Shown piece after piece: positions 16,949 to 39,984 of a DNA stretch of 44,323 nucleotides. Origin of the DNA: Patescibacteria group bacterium (lineage in GTDB: Bacteria > Patescibacteriota > Minisyncoccia > Phycocordibacterales > UBA1006); the NCBI GenBank assembly GCA_028286885.1, contig JAQBQS010000009.1:1-44323 (forward strand). Direction: 5' to 3'. The notes under the pieces are model-generated. The model worked only from the letters and a program-made list of their open reading frames with translations. It made no database searches and was not told the origin of the DNA. The position numbers and the translations under genes are program-made. Position 1 is the stretch's first letter. Every line of letters begins with the position of its first letter.

Positions 16949-16977
16949 TTGACTTATTTTATATAATATGTTAATAT
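16949..16977 (+). promoter_or_regulatory. -35/extended -10 promoter of orphan 17025
   Basis: TTGACT-17 nt (ending atgt)-TAATAT. Confidence 0.7.
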
Positions 16978-17024
16978 ATAAAAGTAAAAGTTCATTTCAA
17001 TTCATAACATTTAAATAAAAACAT

Positions 17025-17618
17025 ATGCCAGCTAGCGAATTAGATGCCGACAAAAAGTCTTCATGGTTTCAAACATTGAAATCTGATGCCGAAAAAGAGG
17101 GCGTCAGTATTGAAATTCAGAAAATAATAGTGGACTACTCCTTGCCATACAGCGAAGCTGCGAGCAATGGCGATTTGTCGATGGGTCCTGGCAATGACAG
17201 AATTGCCGAGGCTCTTCGCACTATCGAAATGAAAGACGTTTACCAGATTGAAAAAGAAAAGATCGTAGAAACGACCATTCTTCTCAATTGGCCAGAAGGT
17301 GTATCTTATGAGCGTGCGGTCGCATGGGGGATAAAGCATGGTCTCAAGCTATCGACGCCTCATGATGTATTTGCATTTGGCGTGGAAAACTCTTCATTCA
17401 GCCTTCCTCTGATGCCGTTACCTACGTCTGGTCCCATTCTTAGAGGAATTCCGACCGAGCGATACGTATGCGAGACAACAGGGTTCAACGAAGATGTCTT
17501 CGGTATCGAATTCAGGAACTATCGCCAGTGGCGCCATCCTATCTTCAAACCGAAAGAGTATTTCTCGTTTAACAGGGTTTGGTTTATTTTTTTAAAACCA
17601 GCTGATACAGATCTCTAA
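17025..17618 (+). CDS. Orphan hypothetical protein
   Basis: 197-aa ORF with own promoter, A-rich leader and terminator (~17626-17659). Confidence 0.75.
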   Translation: MPASELDADKKSSWFQTLKSDAEKEGVSIEIQKIIVDYSLPYSEAASNGDLSMGPGNDRIAEALRTIEMKDVYQIEKEKIVETTILLNWPEGVSYERAVAWGIKHGLKLSTPHDVFAFGVENSSFSLPLMPLPTSGPILRGIPTERYVCETTGFNEDVFGIEFRNYRQWRHPIFKPKEYFSFNRVWFIFLKPADTDL

Positions 17619-17707
17619 AGTATGTTCCGCTTCTGTTAAGATCAGAAGCGGATTTTTTTATGTTGCAAAATTTGTCTTCATTAAAAATAACAAGATAAAA
17701 ACGGACA

Positions 17708-18022
17708 TTAGTCCGCTTCTTCTTCCGCCTTCTCGCCGAGCTTTACGATGTCGCCGTCCTTGAACAAAATATTTTTCAAAATTTTGCGCCATTTCGGCTT
17801 TTGCCGCAGCAGAAATTCCAAGTCCATGCCGAAGTGCTTGAACTCCTCGCCCTGCGCGTTTTCCATGATCGCCTTGGCGTCATCGTTTTGCTCGACGGAC
17901 ATGCGCTGCTCGTACCAGTCGATTGCTTCGGCCTCCTCAATGAGTCCCATGATCATGCGGGCGAAGGTGCGGGTTTCCTGCGATAATTCTTCTGCTGGTT
18001 CGTGATATTGGTCAAATGCCAT
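17708..18022 (-). CDS. Encapsulated-ferritin-like (EncFtn/Flp) protein
   Basis: YHEP.EELS..TR..AR....LIEEAEAIDWYEQR and EEFKH..M.LEFL ferroxidase motifs. Confidence 0.85.
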   Translation of the reverse strand: MAFDQYHEPAEELSQETRTFARMIMGLIEEAEAIDWYEQRMSVEQNDDAKAIMENAQGEEFKHFGMDLEFLLRQKPKWRKILKNILFKDGDIVKLGEKAEEEAD

Positions 18023-18136
18023 AATGATTTCAGGTTACCTTATAATGAGTCCATTTTATCATCATTATGCCAAGAAGACAGCAGAGGAACACTTGTTCAC
18101 TTGACACTTATTTTAAGTATTTGATAAAATGAAAGC

Positions 18137-19624
18137 ATGAGTCCTTCGATATCATTCCAGCCTGATTCTGCCTTGGCAAAAATCCCGGGTATTTTTACGA
18201 TCGTGGACGTGGAAACGACCGGTATGCGTGCGGCAAGTTCGCGAGTAATTGATATTGGGATAATTAGAATAGAAAATGGAATAGTTACAAAAACATTCAA
18301 GTCATTCGTGAATCCAGGATCAAGAATTTCGTGGTCGTCCACCTTGATCACGGGAATTACAAACGACGACGTCGAAAATGCTCCGAGCTTCGAGGATATT
18401 TCAAGTGATATCTATGAATTTTTTGAGAATGCGGTTTTCGTCGCGCACAATGCGAGCTTTGATTATTCGTTCATCAAAGCCGAGTTTGCAAGATGCGGAA
18501 TTGATTTTTCAGCAGAGACCCTCTGTACGGTAAAGCTTTCCCGTGCGCTTTACCCGAGAGAGCGTCGCCACAATTTGGATGCGGTGATTGAACGATTCGG
18601 ATTCACATGCGAGACGCGCCATCGCGCATATCCGGACGCGGACGTGCTGCGGCAGTTTTTGGAACACATCCAAATGCATCATACGGAAACGGAAATCAAT
18701 TCTGCCATCTCGGGAATCTTATTCGCAGGGAAGAAGGAATTCTTATACGACCGCAAATCGCTTTCAAGGTTGCCCGACGGTCACGGCATTTACCAATTTT
18801 ACGGACCTGATAATGAGCTTCTGTATATCGGCAAGAGCAAGCATATTCGCACGCGTGTGCGATCACATTTCTCGGATGACGAGCCGATGGAGCGCAAGCT
18901 CATGAAAAAAGTTGCGAAGATCGAATGCGAGGAAACCGCCGGGGAACTTTCGGCGCTGATTCTCGAGGCGCATCGCATAAAGCGCGACCTGCCGATTCAT
19001 AACCGCAAACTGCGGAAATTGCGCGAGATGGTTGCACTGGTTGAATCCAAGAATGCAGGGGGCTATCTTGTCCCAGTGATTGAGAAACATGAGACCATTG
19101 ATCCGCAAGCGGGGATTTTGTCCGTCTTCAGAAGCATGCCGCAGGCACGCGCGAAGCTGCGCGAATTCGCAGCAAAAAATAATTTGTGCGAGAAGCTTCT
19201 CGGTCTCGAGAAGACCGACCGCGCATGCTTCGGATTTGGCCTTGGCAAATGTTCTGGTGCTTGCATCGGGCGCGAATCCGCAGATGAATACAACAAGCGC
19301 TTCAAGGCCGTATTCAAAAGCCGCCGCATTAAGACATGGCCTTTCAAGGACACGATCATGATCGACGAGAAAAAAGACGATCAGTCCGGAATCGTTTTCT
19401 TTGTCCGCGATTGGAGAATTTTGAAATCATTTTCATACGAGGGTTCCGAGATGGGTGAGTTCATTGCCTCGCCGGGAACGTTCGACGTAGACACGTATAA
19501 GATTCTTGCAAGGTACATGCTCGATCCTGCGAACAGAAGAAGCGTAAAACAAATTTCCGAACAGGAGTTCAGAAATTCGCTTCAGGCATTGGACGAGGGA
19601 GAATATGTAATCGAGTTTGCCTGA
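18137..19624 (+). CDS. DEDDh 3'-5' exonuclease (Pol III epsilon-like) fused to a GIY-YIG UvrC/Cho-like nuclease
   Basis: VDVETTG, VAHNASFD, HRAYPDA; GIYQFY..LLYIGKS..IRTRVRSHF; Cys cluster C..LLGLE..C..C.GAC. Confidence 0.88.
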   Translation: MSPSISFQPDSALAKIPGIFTIVDVETTGMRAASSRVIDIGIIRIENGIVTKTFKSFVNPGSRISWSSTLITGITNDDVENAPSFEDISSDIYEFFENAVFVAHNASFDYSFIKAEFARCGIDFSAETLCTVKLSRALYPRERRHNLDAVIERFGFTCETRHRAYPDADVLRQFLEHIQMHHTETEINSAISGILFAGKKEFLYDRKSLSRLPDGHGIYQFYGPDNELLYIGKSKHIRTRVRSHFSDDEPMERKLMKKVAKIECEETAGELSALILEAHRIKRDLPIHNRKLRKLREMVALVESKNAGGYLVPVIEKHETIDPQAGILSVFRSMPQARAKLREFAAKNNLCEKLLGLEKTDRACFGFGLGKCSGACIGRESADEYNKRFKAVFKSRRIKTWPFKDTIMIDEKKDDQSGIVFFVRDWRILKSFSYEGSEMGEFIASPGTFDVDTYKILARYMLDPANRRSVKQISEQEFRNSLQALDEGEYVIEFA

Positions 19625-20310: not shown

Positions 20311-20415
20311 AGTCGTACTTTAGAACGCGCCGAATAACTTGGCAAGTATGCAAATCGATAAGTCGGCGTATACTAAAATTGGTGGACATTATCAGCAGTT
20401 AATCTTTTACATTAT

Positions 20416-20592: not shown

Positions 20593-20653
20593 TAAAAGCC
20601 TGCGGGCTTTTTTTACTTGAATAATTTGGGATTTCTGCTACCATGGTCCCATC

Positions 20654-20726
20654 GCCAAAGTAGCTCAGTTGGTAGAGCACGTCTTTCGTAAAGACGGGGT
20701 CGCCGGTTCAATCCCGGCCTTTGGCT
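20654..20726 (+). tRNA. tRNA-Thr (CGT)
   Basis: Anticodon arm CGTCT-TTCGTAA-AGACG; GCCAAAG/CTTTGGC acceptor stem. Confidence 0.95.
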
Positions 20727-20730
20727 CACG

Positions 20731-22297: not shown

Positions 22298-23173
22298 ATG
22301 ACCAAGGAAGACATTCAATCAAAAATTGCCGAACTCGAGGCGCGCATGTACGCGCCTGATTTTTGGAATGACAAGGAAGCGGCTCAGGCAGCACTTCGTG
22401 AAATTGAAGAATTGAAAGCGAAACTCGAGGGCGGCGGAAAATATGACAAGGGCGATGCCGTGCTTTCCATTTTCACAGGCGCAGGCGGGGACGACGCGGA
22501 GGATTTTTCAAGAATGCTCTATGAGATGTATTTGAAATTCTGCGACAACAAGAATTGGAAAACGATTCTGTTGGATAAGAATGAAAATGGCAGCGGAGGG
22601 TTCAGATCTATTTCTATTGAAATTCATGGCAAGAATGCATACGGCACTCTAAAGAATGAGTCCGGCGTGCACCGATTGGTGCGCATCTCGCCGTTCAATG
22701 CGAAAGGCAAGCGCAATACGAGTTTTTCGATGGTAGAGATTTTGCCAAAATTCGAGAAGCTTGATTTTGAAATTCCCGAGTCTGACCTCGACATTGCGTT
22801 TTCGAAATCCGGCGGCAAGGGCGGACAGAACGTGAACAAACGCGAGACCGCCGTGCGCATTACGCATACACCTACTGGATTGACCGCGCATGCGACTGCG
22901 GAGCGTAGCCAAGAAGCCAACAAGGAAGAGGCGATCAAAACGATTTCCGCAAAAGTCTGGCGACTTGAAGAAGAAAAACAAAAAGCCGCCGAGCGCGGCA
23001 TGGCCATCTCGGCTACGACCGATAACGAATGGGGAAGCCAAATCAGATCGTACGTCTTGCATCCCTACAAAATGGTCAAGGATCATCGAACAGGTGTGGA
23101 GACATCAAACGCGGAAAAAGTTTTAGAGCGAGGGGAACTTGATGAATTCATTGAAGCTGAAAAAGATTTGTAA
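22298..23173 (+). CDS. prfB: Peptide chain release factor 2, shortened form
   Basis: GAGG, ESGVHRLVRISPF (SPF motif), GGQNVNK, WGSQIRSYVLHPYKMVKDHRT. Confidence 0.92.
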   Translation: MTKEDIQSKIAELEARMYAPDFWNDKEAAQAALREIEELKAKLEGGGKYDKGDAVLSIFTGAGGDDAEDFSRMLYEMYLKFCDNKNWKTILLDKNENGSGGFRSISIEIHGKNAYGTLKNESGVHRLVRISPFNAKGKRNTSFSMVEILPKFEKLDFEIPESDLDIAFSKSGGKGGQNVNKRETAVRITHTPTGLTAHATAERSQEANKEEAIKTISAKVWRLEEEKQKAAERGMAISATTDNEWGSQIRSYVLHPYKMVKDHRTGVETSNAEKVLERGELDEFIEAEKDL

Positions 23174-23217
23174 TATAAAAAAGCCTGGCGAGATATGCCA
23201 AGCTTTCGAATTTAAGG

Positions 23218-23580
23218 TTAGGCCTTGAATCCTTGCAGAATTTCTAAAATATTCAGAAGTTCTTTTTCTGCGAGCTCCAGAGCGGCTATGCGGTTGATCT
23301 TTTTACCGGAAGCTTTTTCCCTTGACCATGAGTTTCTTACGTCGTTCAAGCTGTTGTTTGCAGCATCGATGACATTTTGGATTTTCTCGTTGGACAAGGT
23401 GAGCTTTTTCGATGAAGAAAAGGTGAGAGCGGGGAAGTTAGTTCTGTAGAGCGCGCCTACCATACTGATCGATTTTCCCGCCTTAGTAGATAGGCCTATA
23501 GGGGAAACCATGAGGAGATTTTGTAAGGATAGCATTGCTTGGTAAATTTGCAGGGAGCTTTTGTAGTTGTTGTTTATCAT
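23218..23580 (-). CDS. Orphan hypothetical protein
   Basis: 120 aa; promoter TTGACT-17-TATAGT at 23636-23608. Confidence 0.65.
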   Translation of the reverse strand: MINNNYKSSLQIYQAMLSLQNLLMVSPIGLSTKAGKSISMVGALYRTNFPALTFSSSKKLTLSNEKIQNVIDAANNSLNDVRNSWSREKASGKKINRIAALELAEKELLNILEILQGFKA

Positions 23581-23726
23581 AACGGTATTGTTTTTTGTTT
23601 CTGAACAACTATATCATATTTATCATTAAAAGTCAATAGATCCCAAAAACCTTGCTTTATAATGCTAAATAAAAAAAATCCCTGTGCCATTAAAGGTAAG
23701 GGATTCCGAATAATTTTTAACATTTT

Positions 23727-24083
23727 TTAGTCAGTGTCGTGATTGCTGTTGGGATGAAGCGGGAAGAGGTCTTCGAGAGCTTTCTCCATTTCTGGCAGGG
23801 ACTCTTTTATATAATTTTCCTGCATCTGTTTCATTTCCTCGAGATGGCTGGCAGATTCGGTCAAATTCTCGCTCATACGGGATCCATGATAGTCTTCCCA
23901 GAAAAAGTCCGTAAGAATTTTAAATGCCAGCTTTACGGAAGGGTTCATAACATAGCCCTCCTTGGCTTTTTGATAAAAGCTGATGCCGCTCGCATCTTTT
24001 TTCGAATGGAGTTCTTTGAGAAAATTGAGCGCCTTGCGCACGGCCGAAACGCTTGTTCCGCCTATGATTACTTCCTTACTCAT
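23727..24083 (-). CDS. Orphan hypothetical protein
   Basis: 118 aa; promoter TTGATT-17-TATATT starting at 24156. Confidence 0.65.
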   Translation of the reverse strand: MSKEVIIGGTSVSAVRKALNFLKELHSKKDASGISFYQKAKEGYVMNPSVKLAFKILTDFFWEDYHGSRMSENLTESASHLEEMKQMQENYIKESLPEMEKALEDLFPLHPNSNHDTD

Positions 24084-24193
24084 TCAGTTTGGTTTTATTG
24101 ATTTGTCGAAATAAAAATCTCGGATGAAATATAACATAGTTATATGACTTAATCAAGATCTGAAAAATGAGCGTATGCTATAATGCCAAAACT

Positions 24194-24854: not shown

Positions 24855-25214
24855 TTACTCGACAGGCGTCACGCTTACGATATTCGGATAGCCGTCCATC
24901 CTATGGATGCGGATTCCGTAACATCCGATTTTGTACTTCTTTCCGACAGTCATCTTGTTTTGGATGTCGGATGAGTTGTACTTGTCATATGTCCAGGTGT
25001 CGCTGTTCTGGAACACTCCCTCTTCTTCGGTAAACACCAGGTACGTGTCATCTCCTTTGATGATCTTGTGGTCCAGGCTTTTGATTGTCACTACAATTTC
25101 CCTGTACGTTTGGTGGTTAGTCTTGTAATAGAGAATTAGGAAAGGGCTGATGATCAGGCTTCCCACGATGATTACCAAGATAAGACGGCCGATTTTCTGC
25201 ATTCTTGTCAGCAT
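24855..25214 (-). CDS. Membrane-anchored DUF1523-like protein (phage-associated type)
   Basis: TM helix, then YLVFT..VFQNSD..KYNSSD..GKKY..YG.R..YPNI; promoter TTGACA-18-TATAAT at 25267-25238. Confidence 0.6.
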   Translation of the reverse strand: MLTRMQKIGRLILVIIVGSLIISPFLILYYKTNHQTYREIVVTIKSLDHKIIKGDDTYLVFTEEEGVFQNSDTWTYDKYNSSDIQNKMTVGKKYKIGCYGIRIHRMDGYPNIVSVTPVE

Positions 25215-25304
25215 GTTTTTTGATTTTGTTTGCAAGCATTATAACACACTTATATTTAATATGTCAAGTAACGATTGTAAGCGGTTCCTTGCTATAATTT
25301 TTGC

Positions 25305-25600: not shown

Positions 25601-26008
25601 CTACGTATCGGCTTTGCATTTTGTGTCATTGACGATCAGTATCGGCAGCTCTTGTTCAAGAGTGAACCACATTTCGCGCGGAACAGGAAACTCGACGAGG
25701 CCTAAGGCATGTCCCATCGCGAACAGCATTTCGGCCGTTTCGAACATCATCGTCCACCAACGGCCGGTGTTTTTGAAATTGGATTCGAGAAATGAGGCGC
25801 CTTTGCTTCCCGAGCTTTTCTTAAAGTCGTAAGGAAGCTCTAGGAGCATGTCCTTGATTTCTTGCTTATGGTCAAGAAGGTCGTTTGAAAAATAAATGTC
25901 ATTTTGAAGTCCGATTCCTCGGAATGATGATGCTTGGGTTTTGGAAACCCTGCACCGGAAGAAAACTTCCTTTACGTTTTTTGAGCACAGCTGGGTTTTG
26001 GTTTCCAT
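25601..26008 (-). CDS. Orphan hypothetical protein, possibly phage-derived
   Basis: 135 aa; MLLELP..F..GASFL..G.WWT..E.L.AMG.ALG..PREMW pattern; TTGACA promoter at 26062. Confidence 0.65.
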   Translation of the reverse strand: METKTQLCSKNVKEVFFRCRVSKTQASSFRGIGLQNDIYFSNDLLDHKQEIKDMLLELPYDFKKSSGSKGASFLESNFKNTGRWWTMMFETAEMLFAMGHALGLVEFPVPREMWFTLEQELPILIVNDTKCKADT

Positions 26009-26107
26009 GATATTGAATTGAAATGGTTTGTATTATAATAACCTTTTTTATTTAAATGTCAAGAATAGAAAAATCCCTTTGCTTCGAAAAGCAAAGGGAT
26101 CTGATGT

Positions 26108-26467
26108 TTAAATAGAAAGACGATAGTTTAACTTTTCGTCATAGAAACCTTCAACTCTTATGTCGTTCTCTGTGAATGTTATTTTGCAGCCCTCAGTCAT
26201 GCAGACACTGAACTTACTTGCAAGTCCGGTGTAGTTGTTATTCGGATAAAACTGAAGGATCGTATTGACTCTTGTATGTTCGATATTAAAGATGTCAGCT
26301 ACAGCGTAGGAGATGGTGTCTGTGGTTAGCATTCCATGGCAAGGATAAGAAGTGAATCCGTCATCGGTTTTTAATACTATGCTTGGACCTTTCTTTAAAA
26401 ATTCTAGCATTGTTTTAATAATGGTGACGTTATCTTCGCCATCTTTCTTGAATGTAAGTGTAGGCAT
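26108..26467 (-). CDS. Orphan hypothetical protein
   Basis: 119 aa; promoter TTGACT-16-TAATAT at 26538-26511; hairpin ~26069-26101 downstream. Confidence 0.65.
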   Translation of the reverse strand: MPTLTFKKDGEDNVTIIKTMLEFLKKGPSIVLKTDDGFTSYPCHGMLTTDTISYAVADIFNIEHTRVNTILQFYPNNNYTGLASKFSVCMTEGCKITFTENDIRVEGFYDEKLNYRLSI

Positions 26468-26601
26468 TTGGTTTGTTTTTATTTGATTATAAATAGAGCT
26501 TTATATGGATATATTAGCATACTATATAGATAAGTCAAGTATTCCAATCCTGCCAATTTGCTATAATACTCAAGCATTTAAACGATATTTTTACTATTCC
26601 T

Positions 26602-29055: not shown

Positions 29056-29065
29056 AATTCAAATC

Positions 29066-29097
29066 AAAAAATATCCGAGAATTCTCGGATATTTTTT
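29066..29097. terminator. Bidirectional terminator after gyrA
   Basis: aaaaaatatccgagaattctcggatatttttt perfect palindrome. Confidence 0.8.
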
Positions 29098-29138
29098 GTA
29101 AATAAAAAACCGGCTGCAGAGCAGCGCGGTTTGTAATG

Positions 29139-30242
29139 TTACTCAACAGGAACGAGAAGTTCTTTTCTCATGGCGGCAAATTTCTTCATGGATTTCGCCG
29201 GTGCGATGTAATTCTTTTCCGCCTTGAGGAACTCGAGGTTTTGCTTCAGGATGCTAAGCTCCATGGCATGCAGCGCGTCGGTACTTGTCCCGTGCTCCTT
29301 GAGGAGATCGCGAAACTCTTCATGCGACACCCAGATGACCGGATTGTTCACATAGAGCGAAGAATGGTGGAACATGATTCCCTCAGGAGTGAACGAAAAT
29401 GATGGAATTCCGTCCAATTTGACACTGTTAATGAGCTGGTTCGCCTGATGAATATTGATATCCTTCTTTGACATCTCTTTTGGGTATCGAGGTATCGTGA
29501 TCATGCGTCCGTGCACAAACATCTTGAGGTTCCTATCGGAGGGGAATGAGTCCATCAGAAGCGAGTTGTACACGATAGGAGCTATGTACTGCATGAGGGT
29601 GAACTTTTTCTGAACCAACTTCGGAAAATCTTTTGTCTCCAAAATTTTATAGAGTACCTGATTGTAAATGCGCGATTGACGCGCCTCGATCATCATGAGT
29701 TCCTTGTTAAACGATTTGTACGGAACCATGTTCGAATGGACTTCAACTTCAATAATGCGTTTCTTGGTATAGATCTTGAGTTCTCTCATGAGAGCCAGGA
29801 GATCGTAGATGAGTTCGCTTTCTTCTTTTGTCATGCGAAACGCATCTTTTGGATAGAACGTGCCGGAGATGCTCTCGAGTTTGAATTCCTTCGAATGGTT
29901 TTCGAGTCCCAGGAGTTGTTCTTTCGTGACATTCAGAAGTTCGGCAAATGACATCGCGTCTTTTGGATCGAAACCGTAGCGCAGTGTTTTAAAGCGCGAA
30001 AAGTCGGATACGAGATTTGAGATATGTGATTGCATATCCTGAACCGGGCCGGCATATACCATCCCATGGGAGATGTTGAGATTGATCATGATCTCCTCAA
30101 AAAGCTTGTATGATGCCAGAACTTCAGGGTTTGTTGATCCTGTATTCTTGACATCTTCACGGCGTGAGAGAGGACAGAGACTGCAACCCGCGGCGCACGA
30201 TTGGCTGGTTGGAAAGATTTCCATTTCGATTATTTTCTTCAT
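29139..30242 (-). CDS. Orphan protein with N-terminal CxxxCxxC (radical-SAM-like) motif
   Basis: IEMEIFPTSQSCAAGCSLC; start moved to ATG 30242 because the promoter TTGACT-17-TATTCT overlaps the longer start. Confidence 0.7.
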   Translation of the reverse strand: MKKIIEMEIFPTSQSCAAGCSLCPLSRREDVKNTGSTNPEVLASYKLFEEIMINLNISHGMVYAGPVQDMQSHISNLVSDFSRFKTLRYGFDPKDAMSFAELLNVTKEQLLGLENHSKEFKLESISGTFYPKDAFRMTKEESELIYDLLALMRELKIYTKKRIIEVEVHSNMVPYKSFNKELMMIEARQSRIYNQVLYKILETKDFPKLVQKKFTLMQYIAPIVYNSLLMDSFPSDRNLKMFVHGRMITIPRYPKEMSKKDINIHQANQLINSVKLDGIPSFSFTPEGIMFHHSSLYVNNPVIWVSHEEFRDLLKEHGTSTDALHAMELSILKQNLEFLKAEKNYIAPAKSMKKFAAMRKELLVPVE

Positions 30243-30330
30243 TTGTAATGGTATTTGTTTGCGCGAGAATATCATCTATTTATCACCAAGTCAAGTATGA
30301 CTAACTCGCGAGCTCTAATATAATGAATGC

Positions 30331-32209: not shown

Positions 32210-32273
32210 AAAAAGACCGCAATCCGTTGTGGTCTTTTTGTTTTTTAATTTTTTGCAAGGTATACTGTCAGAC

Positions 32274-33824
32274 ATGAACAGACTCAAATCTTTTGCGCTC
32301 CTTCTCGCGTTCGGGCTTCTTGCAATGGCGCCCTACGCCCATGCCGCATTTACTGCGACTCCGACGCAGACCGTGAGTTCACTGACAGTCAGCTATCACT
32401 ATACCGGAACTCCGACCTCCGATATTCGAGTCTATTCATGGCTCGGCGTTGCAAGCTCGACAACTTGGATCGATCGCAACAATCTCTTGATTACGATTGG
32501 ACATTCCTCGACACCGGTGACGAAGGATTTTAGCGTCACCTATAACTTTTCGGCTCTCGGCCTGACGAACGGGACGAACTATGTTTACTATCTTGCTGAC
32601 GGAACGACCGATCAGTCTACCGTTCTTTCGGGGCCTGCGTATTTTACCGTCGGAGGAACCCAAAATCCGACAACACCTACAACTGGTCAGTATGCGTTTG
32701 CTGCAACAGGGCAGTTTGCCGGCCAAGCCCCTGGAACATTCCAAGAAGGTTTTACTGTTAAGCCGACGACTTCGCTTGCTCAGGCAACAACATTAACGCT
32801 TAAGACATTTGTGAACACGTCTTCGACAACGCTCGTATCAACGGATACGTTTCCAATTGGACCTGGCACGGGAACTGTTTCGCCAAGTACGAACGATCTC
32901 GGACCTGGCGATTATACTGCAGTCATTTACGAAGGAACCACGAGTGTCGGGAGTGTTGATTTCAAGATAACAAGCTCCGCGCCTGCAAATCCGTCAACTC
33001 CTCCCACGACGCCAGCAACTCCGCCTGCAGGACCTACGACTCCGATCACTCCCGCCGTTCAAGTCGGCAACACGCTCATAACCTATTTGCCTGGATATAC
33101 GATTACGAATACGGACGCGACACTTCCGGTCAAGATCAGCGTTGTTGTTGAGGCCCAGGTTAACTTGTCGGTGTATATGGCACCCCAGGGACAGAATCCT
33201 TCGGGAGGGCAGACTCTTGTCAATGAATTTATCAGGCCTTTCGTTCCAAAAAATACTTCGATTAAATTTACGGGGCTCACTGCCGGAACAACGTACGTCT
33301 TCACAATTAAAAATGAATCGACAGGCGACCATACAGCGCCTCTGCAATTTAGAACGACCGGCGGAACAGGAACGACAGGAGGATCATTCGGCGTTGTAGG
33401 AACGAATATTGTTAACGGCATTCCGACCGATGTGCCCGCCCTTGTCGATACCATTTCGGATAAGGGAATCGTTCCTAAGTGCGGTCGTACAGGCAGTGAT
33501 ACCGACACCGTTGGAACGCAGATGTGCGGATACAAGGATTTAATGCAGCTGATCGCGAACGTCATCCAGTTCGGACTCATCATGATCGGTCCGATTGTAG
33601 CGATCCTTGCGATGTATGCGGGTGCGATGATCATCTGGCTCGGCAGATTGCCTGATCCGACGAGCGAGCAGATGAAAACACTTAAGAAGTACAAAGCGAT
33701 GCTCGTCCGCGCCGCTATCGGGATCCTTATTATTGTCTTGGCATGGACGTTGATCGCTACAATCCTGCGGGAGCTTGGCGTCAAGTCGAACTACATCCTG
33801 CTCGACATCTTGAGCGGCAACTAA
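32274..33824 (+). CDS. Secreted Thr-rich multi-domain protein with C-terminal TrbC/VirB2-pilin-like hairpin
   Basis: Signal peptide ending AHA/A; beta-rich repeats; Fn3-like FTGLTAGTTYVF; IVPKCG..MCGY; two C-terminal TM helices. Confidence 0.75.
   Translation: MNRLKSFALLLAFGLLAMAPYAHAAFTATPTQTVSSLTVSYHYTGTPTSDIRVYSWLGVASSTTWIDRNNLLITIGHSSTPVTKDFSVTYNFSALGLTNGTNYVYYLADGTTDQSTVLSGPAYFTVGGTQNPTTPTTGQYAFAATGQFAGQAPGTFQEGFTVKPTTSLAQATTLTLKTFVNTSSTTLVSTDTFPIGPGTGTVSPSTNDLGPGDYTAVIYEGTTSVGSVDFKITSSAPANPSTPPTTPATPPAGPTTPITPAVQVGNTLITYLPGYTITNTDATLPVKISVVVEAQVNLSVYMAPQGQNPSGGQTLVNEFIRPFVPKNTSIKFTGLTAGTTYVFTIKNESTGDHTAPLQFRTTGGTGTTGGSFGVVGTNIVNGIPTDVPALVDTISDKGIVPKCGRTGSDTDTVGTQMCGYKDLMQLIANVIQFGLIMIGPIVAILAMYAGAMIIWLGRLPDPTSEQMKTLKKYKAMLVRAAIGILIIVLAWTLIATILRELGVKSNYILLDILSGN
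32691..32978 (+). repeat. 96-codon domain shared with the next gene
   Basis: 84/96 aa identical to 34614-34901. Confidence 0.9.
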
Positions 33825-33830
33825 TACACT

Positions 33831-35780
33831 ATGAATATTATTATGAAAAAATTACTCGCCATCTTCGCGCTCCTCATATCTGCAGTCGCCCTCGGCGTGC
33901 CGTCTCATTCGTTCGCAACGACGACTACGACGTCGAATTCTATTACTGCAGGAGGTTTAATGTCTCATCCTGGAAGTCTAACAACCACAGTTGATCAAAC
34001 AATGACGGCAGTCACCGTAAACTATCACTTTGTCGGAACACCTGACCAGTCTACAATCAAAGTGTATTCTTGGCTTGGCAGAATTTTGCCGAGCAGCAGC
34101 TGGCTTGACCGATCAAACCTTTTGATTACGATTCCGCAGTCCTCTTCACCTGTAACGAAGGATTTCAGCGTGACGTATGATTTTAATGCGCTCGGGCTTA
34201 TAAGCGGAGACCAATATGCCTTTTATTTGGCAACAGGGAAAACGGATAGTGATTTCCTGATAACGCCCCAAATGACCTTTACGGTTGGAGGAACAGGAGG
34301 GGGTTCATACACTTTCGTTGCAAACGGACAGTCTCCAGGCTCAACGACAGGAATGTATGATGAAAGATTTACCATTACTCCCACGGTTCCCCTTACTCAA
34401 CCGACCACGGTTAAGATACTTACTGAAATGACAGGCGGGAGTAATCCCCACACGCGAAACATTCCTAACATTGCAGTATCAGGCTCGAACCCTGTTTCTG
34501 TGACAATGGATGATCTGGCTCCGGGAACTTACCAAGCGCATCTTTTTGATGCCCATTCTGTGCAATTAATGTTGATTCCATTTACGATTACAGCAGGAGC
34601 CGGACAGGGTCCATACACGTTTACCGCAACCGGACAATTTGCGGGCCAAGCCCCCGGAACATTCCAAGAAGGATTTACGGTCAAGCCGACGACTTCGCTT
34701 GCCCAAGCGGTAACGCTGACGCTCAAGACGTTTATGAATGGAGCCGCAACAACATTGGTATCAACCGATACGTTTCCTATTGGGCCCGGAATTGCCGCAG
34801 TTTCGCCGAGCACGAACGACCTTGGACCCGGCGACTATACCGCCGTCATTTACGAGGGAGGAACGAGCGTCGGGAGCGCCGATTTCAAGATAACAAGTTC
34901 GGTTCCGGGAATCGTCCAAGTCATTTCGCATGTGAACGTTCCATCAACTACGGCGACGATCAGCGGAACCCTTGCCGCAACAGGCGCCGATATTCCGAAC
35001 GCTCATCTTGTCGTAAAATTCGGCGAAGACTTGTCGCATTTAACAATCTCTCCCAAGGTTGCCTTCAGCGGAACGATTCCGCACACGGGCGTTGCTTTTA
35101 CGGTTGCGAGCGACCCTTTTGATCCCGCCGTTTCAAACTTGTATTACTATCAGTTTGACGAAACCACCACGGGAACGACCCTTGGCCAAGGAAGCTTCTA
35201 TATCAATACTCCGGCTGACCAAGTAGGCGGAGCGATCAATCCGGGAGCACAGCCGGGAACGCCAACGAATCAGCCGCCTGCGTGCGTTGCCGGACCCTTT
35301 ACGGACGATACGACGAATGACAAATTATGTTCGACCGGCGCTACCGTGAAAGATCTCGTTAAAACAGCAGGAACCTGGACATGGAAATGCACGAGTTCGG
35401 TCATTGCTTATACTCCGGCATCCTGTACGGCAAGCGTGACGGCTGCCGCAGCCAAACCTTCGGACGATAAAAATCCTGACAACTTCCTCAAGAATCCATT
35501 GTCATCGAGCTTGAACTCGTTTCCCAAGATCATCGCGGCGATCGTCAACAACATCGTGCTCCCGATCATGATTCCGTTTATCGCGCTCATGCTCATCTAT
35601 TCCGGATTCCTGTTCGTGATTGCGCGCAAGAAGGGATCGACCGACGGATACGCTGTTGCCAAGAAGACCTTGATGTATACGATGATCGGTGCGGCGCTTG
35701 TCCTCGGAGCATTCGTCGTCTCAAACGCGCTTCAGGGAACGCTTAACGATCTTCTCGCTCCGACTACAACCACGCAATAA
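33831..35780 (+). CDS. Paralogous secreted multi-domain protein with C-terminal TrbC/VirB2-pilin-like hairpin
   Basis: Signal peptide; shared domains; Cys module with WTWKC; LKNPL..IYSGFLFVIA..AKKTL..IGAALVLGA. Confidence 0.75.
   Translation: MNIIMKKLLAIFALLISAVALGVPSHSFATTTTTSNSITAGGLMSHPGSLTTTVDQTMTAVTVNYHFVGTPDQSTIKVYSWLGRILPSSSWLDRSNLLITIPQSSSPVTKDFSVTYDFNALGLISGDQYAFYLATGKTDSDFLITPQMTFTVGGTGGGSYTFVANGQSPGSTTGMYDERFTITPTVPLTQPTTVKILTEMTGGSNPHTRNIPNIAVSGSNPVSVTMDDLAPGTYQAHLFDAHSVQLMLIPFTITAGAGQGPYTFTATGQFAGQAPGTFQEGFTVKPTTSLAQAVTLTLKTFMNGAATTLVSTDTFPIGPGIAAVSPSTNDLGPGDYTAVIYEGGTSVGSADFKITSSVPGIVQVISHVNVPSTTATISGTLAATGADIPNAHLVVKFGEDLSHLTISPKVAFSGTIPHTGVAFTVASDPFDPAVSNLYYYQFDETTTGTTLGQGSFYINTPADQVGGAINPGAQPGTPTNQPPACVAGPFTDDTTNDKLCSTGATVKDLVKTAGTWTWKCTSSVIAYTPASCTASVTAAAAKPSDDKNPDNFLKNPLSSSLNSFPKIIAAIVNNIVLPIMIPFIALMLIYSGFLFVIARKKGSTDGYAVAKKTLMYTMIGAALVLGAFVVSNALQGTLNDLLAPTTTTQ
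34614..34901 (+). repeat. 96-codon domain shared with the previous gene
   Basis: 84/96 aa identical to 32691-32978. Confidence 0.9.
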
Positions 35781-35781
35781 T

Positions 35782-36162
35782 ATGAAACGACACATTACAA
35801 CTCTTTCTTTGTTCGTAGGCGGGCTTGCGTTCGGCATGATGATCAAGGTGGCATTCGCGCAGCAGGGAACTGCCGGCGGGACGTTCAACACGTTGGTTTC
35901 GACGGCCGGCAATTGGATTAGCGCCACAATCGTGCCAATGCTCGTTGCCATCGCGGTGTTAGTCTTCATGTTCAACATGATCATGTTCATCTTCAACTCG
36001 GACAATGAGGCTGAAAGGGCAAAGTTCAAGAAGTATTCGCTCAACTCGATCCTAGCGCTCTTCATCTTGCTTTGCGTGTGGGGTGTCGTCGGGATCTTCA
36101 CTCATACGTTTTTCAACAAGGATCCCGTTATTCCGCAATTGCCGACGAGCGATTCGGCATAA
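35782..36162 (+). CDS. TrbC/VirB2-like pilin
   Basis: Signal peptide ending AFA/Q; two hydrophobic helices split by a charged loop; SILALFILLCVWGVV. Confidence 0.7.
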   Translation: MKRHITTLSLFVGGLAFGMMIKVAFAQQGTAGGTFNTLVSTAGNWISATIVPMLVAIAVLVFMFNMIMFIFNSDNEAERAKFKKYSLNSILALFILLCVWGVVGIFTHTFFNKDPVIPQLPTSDSA

Positions 36163-36224
36163 TGGAACATTAAAAAACGCACCCTTGGGAGGTGCGTTTT
36201 GCATTTGAACAAAATGCAAAAATG

Positions 36225-36605
36225 TTAGTGGGCTGCTCCACCTCCGCCACCTGCTGGGGGAGCGGCGGCTGCGGCAGCAGGTGCTGCGGCGGGACGCTTG
36301 TCAGGAGCAGTAGCTCTTTTAATCTTCATCTTTTGGATCTTAGTATTGTCGCCGAACTCATTGAGTCCGAGTACACTGTCGATCTCGTCTTTCGTTACGG
36401 CTTTGGCCATGGCAGCATCGTGGCATATACCTAGGAGTACGGAGTTTGTGATTCCGCGGTGCCTGCATGCCCATATAGCTTCCTCATAGTTACCGTCAGT
36501 GACAGCCTTTTTGATGCCTTTTTGGACATCCTCGTTTTTTTGATCGCGAACATCGAGGAATCCCTCGATTGTTTCTTTAAACTTGTCGCTTACTTTTTCA
36601 GCCAT
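36225..36605 (-). CDS. Orphan protein with Pro/Ala/Gly-rich tail
   Basis: 126 aa; promoter TTGACA-17-TAAACT starting at 36680. Confidence 0.7.
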   Translation of the reverse strand: MAEKVSDKFKETIEGFLDVRDQKNEDVQKGIKKAVTDGNYEEAIWACRHRGITNSVLLGICHDAAMAKAVTKDEIDSVLGLNEFGDNTKIQKMKIKRATAPDKRPAAAPAAAAAAPPAGGGGGAAH

Positions 36606-36790
36606 TTGATTGGTTTTTAGTTGAATAAATGAATTAAATACTTTCGGGAAGAGTTTATCATAATATTAGTATATTGTCAAGTATTCTAATCGCCAGAAAC
36701 CTTGATTTTAAAGGCAAAATAAGGGATTTCTATAAAACCCTTATAAATCAACACTCTAGGACAGATTTGGATGGGGAAGCTCTGAACTAC

Positions 36791-36819
36791 TTGACAAATA
36801 TGTATGAATATGCTAAGAT
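36791..36819 (+). promoter_or_regulatory. -35/extended -10 promoter of the lipoprotein-like gene
   Basis: TTGACA-17 nt (ending atgc)-TAAGAT. Confidence 0.7.
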
Positions 36820-36889
36820 AGTAATAAGAGTAACCTCTGTAAACAAAATAATTTTTTAAACCAACAACAAACAAAAAAACAAAACAACA

Positions 36890-37636
36890 ATGAGAAATTA
36901 CAAAAACAACCTCGCAATGCTCGTAGTAGCAGTACTGATCATCGGCCTTTCATCATGTGCAAAGCAATGTACAGATGCATACGGTAATGCGGTTCAATGC
37001 CAGTCTGCTACCACAACCGGTACCTACTATCCTACTACCACTCCTACGAACGGCAACAACAACGGACAGAACACGCCGACCAATCCTTCAGCAGGATCCG
37101 GTGCTGCCCTGTTTATGGTAGACGTCACTGCGCTTAATATGGTGGGTGTCGCAGGCCAAGGCCAGTTCTATGCCGTAACCCCTGACTATGATCAGAACTG
37201 CGTGCCGGATGCTGACGCACTTGGCACTGCAGTGGACAAAAACAAGGTGCCTCTGTCAGGACTGATCTCATTTGATCAAGGAATCACTTCCTATCCTTCA
37301 GTGCTGATCTGCGATGCAGGTGTTGCCAATAGCTACAAGGGCTATCATGACCTAAACGGAGGAAACGTGATCGTCTCAGTGTTCAGCAGCAATGTGCCCT
37401 ACGGATACTCTATCAAGCCGGGCACTGTAAACTTGACTACAACCAATCTTTGCACGAAGACCAACTCTGGGATTTATGTAAAGACAACGGTTGGAAAAAC
37501 TGATCTGGCATCTCAAGACTCATGGGCAGCTATCAAGAACCTGAGCGACTCTACCAAGTCAACCAGGGAACTGATGAGCCCTGATGCTGAAAAGAACCGT
37601 GTCGATGCGTTTGTAAAGACGTACAAACATAACTGA
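36890..37636 (+). CDS. Orphan lipoprotein-like secreted protein
   Basis: Lipobox IIGLSS/C, Thr/Asn-rich linker, several Cys; terminator ~37652-37683. Confidence 0.75.
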   Translation: MRNYKNNLAMLVVAVLIIGLSSCAKQCTDAYGNAVQCQSATTTGTYYPTTTPTNGNNNGQNTPTNPSAGSGAALFMVDVTALNMVGVAGQGQFYAVTPDYDQNCVPDADALGTAVDKNKVPLSGLISFDQGITSYPSVLICDAGVANSYKGYHDLNGGNVIVSVFSSNVPYGYSIKPGTVNLTTTNLCTKTNSGIYVKTTVGKTDLASQDSWAAIKNLSDSTKSTRELMSPDAEKNRVDAFVKTYKHN

Positions 37637-37685
37637 TCCTCAAAGGATCTCCAAAGCCACCTTACAAATAAGGTGGCTTTTTTAC

Positions 37686-37714
37686 TTGACAAAATATATA
37701 AAGTATGCTAATAT
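37686..37714 (+). promoter_or_regulatory. -35/extended -10 promoter of orphan 37773
   Basis: TTGACA-17 nt (ending atgc)-TAATAT. Confidence 0.7.
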
Positions 37715-37772
37715 ATAAGAAGAGATCTTTCCATTAAAATACTATTCATAAACCAACAAAATTAATTAACAA

Positions 37773-38132
37773 ATGAAAAAACTAATCTTCTTCTTCGCAA
37801 TGATCTGTGCCGGAACAACAATGTCTGCCCAAACTAAACAAGGCTGGGTAAGTCAGGAAGGCATGCAAAGATGGCTGGGTCAATCGCAGTTCTATAACAG
37901 GACTGATGTTACTACCTACAACTGGATCCGCGTATCGTGGCTTCAGGGAGCGGATACGATATCTGCAAATGCTGCGATCAATGCCGGTGAAATCCAAAAC
38001 GGCATCAAGAAAGGAGATGCGGTTACGATCACGCTGATCAACAACGTGAATACTCCTGTCTGTCATACGGCAATAATAAATCCTGATCGGACAATGGTCC
38101 TAGGGTTCTCTATTTACGCCATCGCACAATGA
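37773..38132 (+). CDS. Orphan secreted protein
   Basis: Signal peptide MKKLIFFFAMICAGTTMSA/QT. Confidence 0.72.
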   Translation: MKKLIFFFAMICAGTTMSAQTKQGWVSQEGMQRWLGQSQFYNRTDVTTYNWIRVSWLQGADTISANAAINAGEIQNGIKKGDAVTITLINNVNTPVCHTAIINPDRTMVLGFSIYAIAQ

Positions 38133-38242
38133 AGCGTCCCCTTAAAGGTTATCCACTCGGATGACCTTTTTTATTTGCTTTTAATTTCCTTGTGGTATAC
38201 TTGGCGTATCCATTATTAAGGATTAACCGTTTCATACCAATC

Positions 38243-38617
38243 ATGAAAAAATTTCTCGCGTCATTATCAACTTTCGCCCTGATTCCTGCGCTCGCATCCG
38301 CGCAGATTATCGGAACATCCGGAACGACGGGATTGGGCAGCTTGGTTGTTCAGTTCAAGGGACTTCTCTCGGCATTGTTTCCAATTGCAATCGCAATCGG
38401 AGTGCTCGCGTTCTTCTACGAGCTCATCATGTTCATCGTTCACAAGAGCGACGACAAAGCTGAGAAATTCAAGAAGGGAATCCTGATGAGCCTCCTCGCC
38501 CTCTTCCTAATGTTCACATTCTTCGGACTTTTGAACGTTATTGCCAACACGCTCGGACTCTCTGGTGCCGTCGGACAGGGTGTTCAGTCAAACCAGATTC
38601 CAGCCGTTCAGCTATAA
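38243..38617 (+). CDS. TrbC/VirB2-like pilin
   Basis: Signal peptide ending ASA/Q; two hydrophobic helices; resembles 35782-36162. Confidence 0.7.
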   Translation: MKKFLASLSTFALIPALASAQIIGTSGTTGLGSLVVQFKGLLSALFPIAIAIGVLAFFYELIMFIVHKSDDKAEKFKKGILMSLLALFLMFTFFGLLNVIANTLGLSGAVGQGVQSNQIPAVQL

Positions 38618-38621
38618 TTGC

Positions 38622-38966
38622 ATGTTTTCCTGGCTGTATCCGATAACCGCATACGCCGCAAGCGATCCGATCAGCGTCAAATTGCTGGTTTTTCGGATCA
38701 GCTACTACATCTTAAACCCGCTCATCAAGGCCGGGTTTGTTGTAGCTTTCGTTTTCTTCATTTGGGGGATCATCAGCTACCTGAAAGATCGAAATGCAGG
38801 ACGCATCTGGGATACGTCGGCATTCGACAAGGATGGCAAGATGACAAGCAAGGCGGGCGACCAGATCGTCTACGGCTTGATCGGACTCTTTATCATGGTC
38901 TCGGCGTTTGGAATTCTCCATTACCTCAAAGATTTCATCGGATCAGGAATTCCTACTCCCTACTAA
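38622..38966 (+). CDS. TrbC/VirB2-like pilin
   Basis: AYA/A; ILNPLI..FFIWGIISY..IVYGLIGLFIMVSAFGIL. Confidence 0.7.
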   Translation: MFSWLYPITAYAASDPISVKLLVFRISYYILNPLIKAGFVVAFVFFIWGIISYLKDRNAGRIWDTSAFDKDGKMTSKAGDQIVYGLIGLFIMVSAFGILHYLKDFIGSGIPTPY

Positions 38967-39075
38967 CTCAAGTAGGCAAATAAAACTCTCACGTAATGTG
39001 AGGGTTTTATTTTTTAATTTCAAATAAAAAGCCCCTTACTTTGCAGTAAGGGGCTTGCAAGCTTTTCACTCGAGG

Positions 39076-39825
39076 CTACTTGTCCATCTTTCCGCCATCA
39101 ATCTCTACTTGCTCTACTGGTGTTCCAGTCTGAGCGGTAGGATCCTTTGGGGTAGTTGTAGTGGGCGCGTTGTCCGGTTGCCAGTCCTTCTCGTGGTCGT
39201 TCCTGCTTCTGCCTTGTGATCTGTTAGTATTGGCGTTTCCTGAGTTGGATGAAGACGTTTCCTCAAAAACAGCAGGGCTAAAAATTGCGTACATGATCCA
39301 AATGAGGACGATGATAATGAACGCCGGCAAGATAATACGCTTCCAAGGCATTCCTTCAGCAGCGTCGGTAGGAGTCGTAGCCGTTGCATGGTTCGCAGTC
39401 GCCATGTTCCTATGCGCATTTTTGAAAATGTGCGGGGATAGCATGATGATGCAAATAACGACAAATGCCAGGATCTCCGAAGCGCCGAGCATTCCGATCA
39501 TCTTCATTCCTGCATCGTAACTGAAAAGACAGCCGGCGATAATAGGAATCAGAATCAAGCATAAGGCGAACCATGCGGCTCCCGAGTTCGCTTTTCTTAC
39601 ATGGTCAGGATCATAGGCGCTGTCCGTTGTGTGGTAATGGGACAATACCCATAAAGCTCCGAGCGTTCCTATGATTGTGATTACAAGCAAAACGATTGCG
39701 AAGTTTGAGAGGCTATGAGTAGCATCAAACCGTTTGGAAATACTCATGATGAGTATTCCGATGATAAAAGCAGCTATTGCTCCCAGGTAAATCCTAAAAG
39801 CACCTTTGGAAATTGTTGTTGCCAT
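39076..39825 (-). CDS. Orphan multi-pass membrane protein
   Basis: About five TM helices and a polar low-complexity tail; promoter TTGACT-17-TATAGT starting at 39908. Confidence 0.72.
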   Translation of the reverse strand: MATTISKGAFRIYLGAIAAFIIGILIMSISKRFDATHSLSNFAIVLLVITIIGTLGALWVLSHYHTTDSAYDPDHVRKANSGAAWFALCLILIPIIAGCLFSYDAGMKMIGMLGASEILAFVVICIIMLSPHIFKNAHRNMATANHATATTPTDAAEGMPWKRIILPAFIIIVLIWIMYAIFSPAVFEETSSSNSGNANTNRSQGRSRNDHEKDWQPDNAPTTTTPKDPTAQTGTPVEQVEIDGGKMDK

Positions 39826-39984
39826 ATTTGTTATATTTTGTTTTAAATGAATAAAATAATGACTATGAGTTTCCTGATAACTATAGCATTTTTAGATATA
39901 AAAGTCAAGAGTACAGTATATTTCCAAATAGCCGAATTCATGCTAGTATTTTAAGGCTCATTTGGGATATCCCCCGCAAGAAAT

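Follow-up and report, generated by a model that had tools for sequence, protein, structure and literature searches.

A probable genome-wide two-design expression architecture in a Patescibacteria lineage without the anti-Shine-Dalgarno sequence

Why should eleven genes with mutually unrelated products, dispersed along one contig of a Patescibacteria group bacterium, be preceded by one and the same kind of promoter and leader? The window, that is, the whole 44,323-nucleotide (nt) stretch analysed here, is contig 2 (JAQBQS010000009.1) of a 16-contig, 846-kb assembly (GCA_028286885.1; G000), and the genome is 93% complete. An earlier note on this DNA had picked out the eleven genes, which are named here by their start positions (17025, 23580, 24083, 25214, 26008, 26467, 30242, 36605, 36890, 37773 and 39825), as members of a second gene class. 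It had proposed for them either a regulon, for example of a host-attached stage, or promoter-gene-terminator units picked up singly from phage-like donors, and had seen in them a strong candidate for an undescribed system. The account best supported by our analysis, and one that we consider probable, is a genome-wide architecture with two expression designs in a lineage whose 16S rRNA lacks the anti-Shine-Dalgarno (anti-SD) sequence, and not a regulon with its own operator or one mobile element. Conserved genes would be expressed as leaderless mRNAs, from an extended -10 box that lies 6-9 nt 5' of the ATG and has no -35 box to accompany it. Units of the other design would consist of a full sigma-70/sigma-A-type promoter, a purine start 7 nt after the -10 box, a leader, one open reading frame (ORF) and usually a terminator, the leader being 15-60 nt long, nearly G-free and unstructured, T-rich in its 5' part and then A-rich up to the ATG, with an A peak at -12/-11. 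Such leadered mRNAs would be translated without a Shine-Dalgarno (SD) sequence, the ribosome loading through S1 on the open A/U-rich leader, much as in Bacteroidetes. The leadered design would mark volatile genes, which are lineage-specific, fast-diverging or gained and lost, self-insulated and placed in either orientation, and a few abundant, highly expressed core proteins would use it as well. The whole would be a general architecture read by the housekeeping machinery.

Upstream of all eleven window starts lie (a/c)TTGA(C/T)N, an AT-rich spacer of 16-18 nt and TAnnnT. The strict pattern TTGA[CT]N-N13-16-TGnTAnnnT is present at 10 of the 11; TGn is likewise found in 10 promoters, and 26008, which lacks it, is the sole exception. 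The -35 box is TTGAC(A/T) in every case but 24083, which has TTGATT. Between the end of the -10 box and the ATG there are 23-70 nt of A/C/T-rich, nearly G-free sequence, the predicted minimum free energy (MFE) of folding of positions -30 to +15 is 0 to -4.4 kcal/mol across the set, and none of the eleven leaders contains an SD motif. The leaderless geometry, with a -10 box 6-9 nt 5' of the start, is found at none of the eleven. Terminator-like hairpins follow eight genes (17025, 23580, 26467, 30242, 36605, 36890, 37773 and 39825); no terminator was detected 3' of 24083, 25214 or 26008, so that 24083 may read through into 23580. Eight genes are on the minus strand, amid plus-strand neighbours, and codon-usage log-odds are positive for all eleven ORFs (9 to 69). 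No protein of the set scores above a Pfam family cut-off, none matches a PADLOC defence-system model at E <= 0.01, and no NCBIfam score comes near a cut-off. A BLASTP search within the leadered class found no relative for ten of the eleven, 26008 lying outside that search. The description given in the earlier note, of the promoter type, the unstructured SD-less leader, the terminators after most units, the predominance of the minus strand and, for the ten genes compared, the lack of mutual relationship, thus stands, to be amended in two minor points: the TG missing at 26008 and the three genes for which no terminator was detected.

Are these eleven genes peculiar to the window? Genes (867) were called with a crude self-trained caller, and starts and classes were assigned with our own scripts and regular expressions. 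Class A, the leaderless type, was defined by TGnTAnnnT ending 6-9 nt 5' of an in-frame start, and class B, the leadered type, by a full promoter 15-120 nt 5' of the first ATG. The genome-wide motif scan that the earlier note had proposed gave 150 matches to the strict pattern, 130 of them intergenic, where random sequence with the composition of the intergenic DNA would give 3.8, and most matches are then followed by the same type of leader and a single ORF. Class B comprises 119 genes, about 14% of all genes, with a median ORF length of 146 amino acids (aa), and is spread over all 16 contigs. The window is not enriched, with 10 strict matches where its share of the genome would predict 6.2 (p=0.14), and what had been proposed as an undescribed discrete system is better described as a genome-wide architecture. 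Class A comprises 190 of the 867 called genes, 185 of them with an ATG start. Distances from TAnnnT to the start peak sharply at 6 nt (125 genes, 76 of them with TG), and TGnTAnnnT is found 7, 8 and 9 nt before the starts of 23, 22 and 14 genes, against a background of 0-8. Since a -10 box placed 6-9 nt from the ATG is the geometry of leaderless mRNAs, the statement that core genes use a leaderless design agrees with these counts; twelve such genes lie in the window, including ligA, gatC, radC, the exonuclease gene 18137 and a metallo-beta-lactamase (MBL) hydrolase gene.

The two classes differ most clearly in the conservation of their genes. Pfam families are recognized above cut-off in 15 of 118 class B proteins, one ORF at a contig end having been left out, versus 129 of 190 class A proteins (65/95 and 64/95), giving an odds ratio (OR) of 14.5 (p=2e-22). 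The contrast is also present among proteins shorter than 160 aa (4/71 versus 25/51). A tblastn match in G005, the same-genus genome that was compared in full (764 kb; its gyrA is 82% identical), was obtained for 15 of 119 class B genes versus 133 of 190 class A genes (OR 16, p=2e-24). The leadered design is therefore not equally frequent before conserved genes but strongly depleted there, and the second gene class of the earlier note extends to the whole genome. Class B genes are also poorer in G+C (mean 0.451 versus 0.486, p=2e-12), are less often continued downstream in an operon-like manner (9/113 versus 61/185), and show hardly any preference for the orientation of same-strand neighbour pairs (same/opposite 36/34, versus 82/25 in class A). 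Paralogy was considered as the source of the shared promoters and rejected, only 8 of the 119 class B genes having a paralogue within the class. The 15 Pfam-positive class B genes include cspA, efp, rplK, rplB, pyrH, guaA, an ABC transporter gene and genes for sigma-like proteins. Both types recur in G005, where 211 genes are of the leaderless type, of which 11 have a -35 box and 158 were recovered in G000, and 73 of the leadered type, of which 19 were recovered there, although related genomes such as these are not independent.

The promoters of the two classes share the TGnTAnnnT element and differ in the rest. The class B consensus is cTTGAC(a/t), a 17-bp AT-rich spacer and aTaTGnTAnnnT, written tacTTGACatat...aTaTGcTAnnnT, the spacer being 17 nt in 108 of 134 cases and 16 nt in 22. 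When no selection was made on the -35 box, a correctly spaced TTGACn was seen in 75 of the 155 leadered genes that have an extended -10 box, versus 3 of 190 leaderless genes (OR 58); the exonuclease/GIY-YIG gene 18137 in the window is one of the few leaderless genes that have a TTGACA -35 box. The -10 hexamer of class A is nearer to TATAAT than that of class B, and class A promoters often directly adjoin the T-tract of the terminator upstream of them. In class B the nucleotide 7 nt 3' of the -10 box is mostly a purine (A 0.63, G 0.29), at which transcription is likely to start. No further conserved motif was found in the 25 nt 5' of the class B -35 box (0-0.3 bit per position), and a TTGACT promoter lies 300 nt 5' of the 16S gene.

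Other observations concern sigma factors and tRNA promoters. The window encodes, at 113-1351 (+), a 412-aa fusion in which sigma-70 regions 2, 3 and 4 are joined to a DnaA C-terminal DNA-binding domain (sigma-DnaA_C). A 437-aa frame on contig 16 is the candidate for the primary sigma factor, and ECF-like sigma factors are encoded as well. The extended -10 box of tRNA genes ends 9-18 nt before the mature 5' end (examples at window positions 16785-16821 and 20617-20653); with the box so close, the tRNA precursors would have very short 5' leaders.

How can leadered mRNAs be translated here? The 16S rRNA gene (contig 16, 29588-31147; L001) ends GGAUCAUUUCAAUU, where the Rfam consensus is GGAUCACCUCCUUU. 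CCUCC is absent from all 17 relatives of the same genus, family or order that have a readable 16S tail; in a sample of 21 genomes of the class, 8 keep it. It is because the 16S rRNA has no anti-SD, in this genome and in 17 of 17 readable relatives, that the leaders are SD-less, and translation of these mRNAs cannot depend on SD pairing. An SD-like 4-mer lies upstream of 43 of 860 starts, a lower frequency than in random 17-mers (11%). Ribosomal protein uL1 was not found in the 93%-complete genome. In class B leaders G does not exceed 0.06 from -18 to -2, A reaches 0.84 at -12 and 0.82 at -11, and the 5' part is T-rich, TTCTTT occurring in 14 leaders versus 1.5 expected. The mean MFE of positions -30 to +15 is -1.15 kcal/mol in class B versus -7.44 kcal/mol for random genomic 45-mers. 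Operon-internal genes have the same A-rich, G-poor start context, so that this context is the organism's general start signal, and the genome encodes a protein with four S1 domains. SD-independent, S1-assisted loading of the ribosome on the open A/U-rich leader would be the likeliest route. A comparison with G050, a single genome of the same class that keeps CCUCC and of which 400 kb was examined, is instructive: a strong SD is found in 1 of 119 class B leaders here versus 10 of 43 there (5 of 16 with the strict promoter; p=7e-6). This suggests that the leaders of accessory genes co-evolve with the rRNA tail.

Pairing of the leaders with the new 16S tail, or mimicry of it, was considered, CATTTCAATT being present in two leaders, and was rejected as non-significant: 7-mers of the tail occur in 11 leaders in the sense and 10 in the antisense direction, against 6.1 +/- 2.3 and 6.2 +/- 2.5 in shuffles. 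The DNA around the new tail contains a perfect palindrome, TTCAATTGAA. The only textbook SD among the 119 class B leaders, AAGGAGG ending 7 nt before the ATG, belongs to a gene on contig 3 (7715-8440 (-); L025:7715-8440) whose 241-aa product has no Pfam or PHROG match, and which might have been acquired recently from a donor that uses SD sequences. At position -1, T precedes the ATG of 51% of all called genes, 57-73% of operon-internal genes and 28% of the leadered class.

Where do the eleven genes come from? Their origins are mixed. Their neighbours in the window are prfB, the MBL hydrolase gene, gyrA, methyltransferase (MT) genes and genes for a solute-binding protein, type IV secretion system (T4SS)-pilin-like proteins and IF-2; the setting is not that of a prophage, as none of these is a phage structural or integration gene, although two of the eleven proteins do match PHROG families. 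Four genes, 36605, 36890, 37773 and 39825, sit in the cluster of T4SS-pilin-like genes (32172-38966), which is wholly syntenic in the genus. Class B units are found at the same positions and on the same strands in the congeners G001, G002, G003, G005 and G008, and the types of protein are kept. The counterparts of 36605 are small cytosolic proteins in G002, G003, G005 and G008, whose genes keep the promoter type, place and strand. Those of 36890 are lipoproteins that retain the lipobox, in the corresponding position in all five genomes. For 37773, secreted proteins with a signal peptide ending SAQ occupy that position in G001 and G002, and for 39825 all five genomes have multi-helix membrane proteins in the matching place and on the matching strand. 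Only 36890 still aligns well (42% identity to its G002 counterpart), and at the DNA level its conservation is limited to the promoter, the leader and the 5' end; 39825 shows a weak similarity to its G002 counterpart (22% over 232 aa, E 0.01). To judge from position and protein type, these four genes have been inherited in place and are diverging fast.

One congener, G005, carries a homologue of 30242 (32% identity) at the corresponding site after gyrA, and just two other clusters are found among 5.8e9 proteins. In the resulting family of four sequences, the CX3CX2C motif near the N-terminus (C16, C20 and C23) and EIFPTxxxCxAGCxxCPLSRR are invariant. A structural model (predicted local distance difference test score, pLDDT, ~81) is a barrel that VIA-align places near EpeE (Z 8.1), ChlB (8.0) and HemN (7.6), tied with glycosidase barrels (Z 8.3-7.0); Foldseek TM-scores are at most 0.35, and there is no Pfam match. 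The product of 30242 is possibly a divergent radical S-adenosylmethionine enzyme. In a search of genome contigs, 30242 alone retrieved nothing, and its alignment retrieved the known congener locus (L134) and a weak partial match (25% over 135 aa; L135), to which no weight is given here.

Five further genes, 23580, 24083, 25214, 26008 and 26467, lie between prfB, the MBL hydrolase gene, a small conserved ORF and gyrA. In congeners the gaps of the prfB-MBL-orf-gyrA-MT series are 54-625 nt long (one is 920 nt) and do not contain the five genes, which would make these strain-specific inserts; several of those gaps hold a different small class B gene on the opposite strand. For 23580 the best Protein Atlas score is 0.76 with a low recognition of 1848, for 24083 there is no usable Protein Atlas match (recognition 1705), and neither has a Pfam, PHROG, PADLOC or NCBIfam match. 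The product of 25214 matches phrog_301, annotated "secreted protein" (E 1.8e-17), has tblastn matches in 191 phage records and scores just under the cut-off for DUF1523; it was found in 0 of 40 relatives. The product of 26008 matches phrog_26039 (E 4.4e-12) and 11 phage records, and was found in 1 of 40 relatives, a member of another genus (41% identity). A word-seeded search for 26467 gave no relative among 5.8e9 proteins. The remaining gene, 17025, would bring the strain-specific inserts to six; it was found in none of 40 relatives, and its product has 23 distant relatives among 1.84e9 representatives and matches nothing in Pfam, PHROG or PADLOC. The best matches of its model (pLDDT 81.6) are C-type-lectin-like folds with modest Z values of 4.4-6.7, including Mtd and TvpA, and Foldseek gave no match at E <= 0.001. 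That 17025 is a C-type-lectin-fold target of a diversity-generating retroelement was considered and rejected, given the modest fold scores and a genome in which no template-like repeat of its 3' end was found. No operator, integrase or repeat was found for the eleven, in agreement with the earlier statement that no integrase is visible.

The gap between prfB and the MBL hydrolase gene also holds a unit of its own in two congeners, G003 and G007 (L008 ~6683-6790 (-) and L016 ~730-815 (+)). Its promoter, TTGACAAAAAA(A)TCAAAA(C/G)CTGCTA(G/A)GAT, is nearly identical in the two genomes and is followed by a conserved, G-containing stretch and an ORF of just 62-69 aa; this unit could be a small RNA rather than a protein gene.

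Several points weigh against the two-design account. About 560 genes fall in neither class, Pfam presence and a single congener are only proxies for gene age, and transcription starts, leaders and expression strength are predictions. The tRNA genes use a TTGAAA-type -35 box, with TTGA[CT] in only 2 of 42, so that the leadered design is not simply the strong housekeeping promoter, and seven sigma region-2 matches, the sigma-DnaA_C fusion among them, are many for an 846-kb genome; conceivably, two sigma factors read the two promoter grammars. Among 81 class B genes with colinear flanks in G005, 32 face a gap with a full promoter and 27 a gap of less than 300 nt, and with these 27 sites empty, part of the class behaves as gained or lost units. 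Finally, phage-family relatives exist for two of the eleven window genes, one of which (26008) is outside strict class B, and for 11 of 118 members of the class. The number of sigma factors and the avoidance of TTGAC by tRNA genes could be explained if the leadered promoters formed the regulon of a dedicated sigma factor, such as the sigma-DnaA_C fusion, that switches accessory, surface and host-interaction genes together, for example at an attached stage. The near-exclusive association of the -35 box with leadered genes would fit such a regulon, one sigma-like gene is itself in class B, and about one-third of the class has a hydrophobic N-terminus (40/119). However, the hydrophobic N-terminus is similarly frequent in class A (54/190), and TTGACA, 17 nt and TRTGnTAnnnT make up the textbook consensus of a primary sigma factor, familiar from Gram-positive sigma-A. 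The TGnTAnnnT element is common to both classes, and a -10 box nearer to TATAAT where the -35 box is missing is what compensation within one sigma factor would produce. Moreover, cspA, efp, rplK, rplB, pyrH, guaA and the region upstream of the 16S gene use the same design, and there is no extra common motif 5' of the -35 box. A regulon as put forward in the earlier note finds no support here, and we consider it very unlikely.

Alternatively, the class could consist mainly of captured, moron-like promoter-gene-terminator cassettes from phages or from the same anti-SD-less lineage, placed between core genes and acquired most readily by DNA uptake and recombination in the conserved flanks, without an integrase; type IV pilus genes are encoded in the genome. 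Capture would explain the five window genes missing from the congener gaps, the absence or rarity of 17025, 25214 and 26008 in the 40 relatives, the phage families of the last two, the empty sites in G005, where whole units are present or absent, and the lower G+C content and random orientation of class B. It is at odds with the four positional counterparts in five congeners and with a fifth gene, 30242, shared with one congener. PHROG matches at 1e-5 are confined to the 11 class members mentioned, five of which have no Pfam match, and three scans of viral contigs (IMG/VR), with 26008, 25214 and the 30242 alignment, gave no relative. No att-like direct repeats flank unit 17025, which adjoins tRNA-Thr, and the junctions at the empty sites show no obvious repeats; the empty sites may reflect either gain or loss. 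The lack of an SD in 118 of 119 leaders excludes SD-using donors, and any donors of gained genes would share this translation system. Single captures from phage-like donors are thus supported only in part, the five genes missing from the congener gaps, with 25214 and 26008 among them, speaking for the idea and the syntenic genes against it; as an explanation of the class it is unlikely. A further possibility, that many units are young proto-genes or non-coding transcripts, with strong promoters in AT-rich spacers and ORFs that are new, barely protein-like or untranslated, would agree with recognition scores of 23580 and 24083 within the range of shuffled sequences, with the isolation of 26467 and with 103 of 118 class members lacking a Pfam match. 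Yet codon usage is favourable in all eleven, the ORF that begins at the first ATG after the G-free leader stops a short way ahead of a terminator, the A peak is positioned relative to that ATG, positional counterparts keep a lipobox, signal peptide or membrane helices, and the models of 17025 and 30242 are confident; the proto-gene explanation is highly improbable. The segregation of the designs might reflect streamlining of old genes while young or exchanged genes keep portable signals, or different expression levels, or different sigma factors. It is a more daring idea, and quite unlikely, that the full promoter and G-free A-rich leader form a portable module, the unit of gene flux, by gain, loss and fast turnover, for accessory, surface and phage-derived genes among these Patescibacteria, in a two-channel system in which a different sigma factor or separate tuning might regulate the volatile genome as a block.

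How does this architecture compare with known systems? Leaderless genes in bacteria were reportedly treated by Zheng and colleagues in 2011. Actinobacteria and Deinococcus-Thermus are given as leaderless-rich bacteria, "group C" of GeneMarkS-2, in Lomsadze et al. 2018 (PMC6028130). Like group C genomes, the present genome has many units headed by a -10 box 6-9 nt 5' of the ATG, without a leader, and leaderless and leadered classes coexist. The leadered genes of group C use SD sequences, whereas here there is no anti-SD, the leadered genes carry a G-free A-rich leader, and the leadered class is closely associated with a complete -35 box and with genes that are not conserved. In Bacteroidetes ("group B" of GeneMarkS-2), initiation is SD-independent in an A-rich, "Kozak-like" start context, and the anti-SD is kept in the rRNA, unused. 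The absence of SD, the position-specific A and a stretch 5' of the start that is unstructured, rich in A and poor in G are similar here, and the mechanism may be the same; unlike in Bacteroidetes, the anti-SD is gone from the rRNA gene, the promoters are of the classical -35/-10 kind and most core genes are leaderless. A Parcubacteria subgroup without the anti-SD motif and uL1 is described in Tsurumaki et al. 2022 (RNA 28:1041, PMC9297842), which leaves the function unclear, does not contain the word "leaderless" and does not describe signals on the mRNA side. As in that subgroup, CCUCC is missing and uL1 was not found here, and the two are probably the same lineage. Our literature search found no paper on leaderless transcription in the candidate phyla radiation (CPR) or Parcubacteria. 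The leadered units are also reminiscent of phage morons and flexible genomic islets, which likewise are complete promoter-gene-terminator units, lie between conserved genes on either strand and differ among close relatives. Unlike phage morons, they are not inside a prophage, are dispersed over 16 contigs, show no recombinase or repeats and, for at least four of the eleven, are inherited in place. Leaderless and leadered classes (Actinobacteria, Deinococcus), SD-independent A-rich starts (Bacteroidetes) and loss of the anti-SD (Parcubacteria) are each already known; what is new here is an SD-less leadered class in an anti-SD-less lineage, its tight link between -35 box and leader, and a quantified link with gene conservation.

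The two designs could be viewed as the replacement for Shine-Dalgarno signalling in a Parcubacteria-type lineage that has no anti-SD, with leaderless mRNAs for conserved genes and a G-free A-rich leader for the rest, and the odds ratios by which they distinguish old genes from volatile ones are close to 15. They provide a rule for calling gene starts and annotating promoters in such genomes, and a marker, readable from sequence only, of fast-evolving or accessory genes, among which one may look for candidate genes of host interaction and surface variation and for functions derived from phages. Clear predictions follow for the mapping of transcript ends and for ribosome profiling in CPR co-cultures, and the co-evolution of leader and rRNA tail would constrain the possible sources of accessory genes.

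Table 1. Positions in the window of the eleven leadered units and of a leaderless gene for comparison. Promoters are given as -35 box, spacer length and -10 region; CDS, coding sequence.
Feature	Span	Strand	Promoter	-10 to ATG	CDS and product	Terminator
Unit 1	16949..17660	+	16949-16977, TTGACT-17-TGtTAATAT	47 nt	17025-17618 (197 aa)	17626-17652
Unit 2	23172..23636	-	23636-23608, TTGACT-17-TGaTATAGT		23580-23218 (120 aa)	23207-23179
Unit 3	23727..24156	-	24156-24128, TTGATT-17-TGtTATATT		24083-23727 (118 aa)	not found
Unit 4	24855..25267	-	25267-25238, TTGACA-18-TGtTATAAT (12/12)		25214-24855 (119 aa, N-terminal membrane helix)	
Unit 5	25601..26062	-	26062-26035, TTGACA-16-TATTAT, without TG		26008-25601 (135 aa)	
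Unit 6	26064..26538	-	26538-26511, TTGACT-16-TGcTAATAT		26467-26108 (119 aa)	26102-26071, adjoining the unit 5 promoter
Unit 7	29065..30294	-	30294-30266, TTGACT-17-TGaTATTCT		30242-29139 (367 aa)	hairpin 29098-29065, in common with gyrA
Unit 8	36167..36680	-	36680-36652, TTGACA-17-TGaTAAACT		36605-36225 (126 aa)	36200-36174
Unit 9	36791..37688	+	36791-36819, TTGACA-17-TGcTAAGAT	70 nt	36890-37636 (248 aa, lipoprotein, lipobox LSSC)	37653-37680
Unit 10	37686..38177	+	37686-37714, TTGACA-17-TGcTAATAT		37773-38132 (119 aa, signal peptide ending SAQ)	38144-38169
Unit 11	39022..39908	-	39908-39880, TTGACT-17-TGcTATAGT		39825-39076 (249 aa, several membrane helices)	39056-39029
Comparator, leaderless exonuclease/GIY-YIG gene	18101..19624	+	-10 box TAAAAT	6 nt	ATG at 18137; Pfam RNase_T and GIY-YIG	

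The run of T4SS-pilin-like genes, on the plus strand, contains PF18895 matches at 33831-35780, 35689-36162 and 38192-38617, with the four fast-diverging secreted or membrane orphans interleaved. Elsewhere in the genome, rplK, encoding L11 (contig 15, 41542-41964 (-)), is monocistronic and leadered; together with the uL1 gene not found in this genome, this fits a loss of the usual rplK-rplA pair. On the same contig (59084-61210 (-); L058:1-2127), a 708-aa class B protein contains a Por_Secre_tail domain, the C-terminal sorting domain of type IX secretion (50.5 bits against a cut-off of 27), which is unexpected for Patescibacteria.

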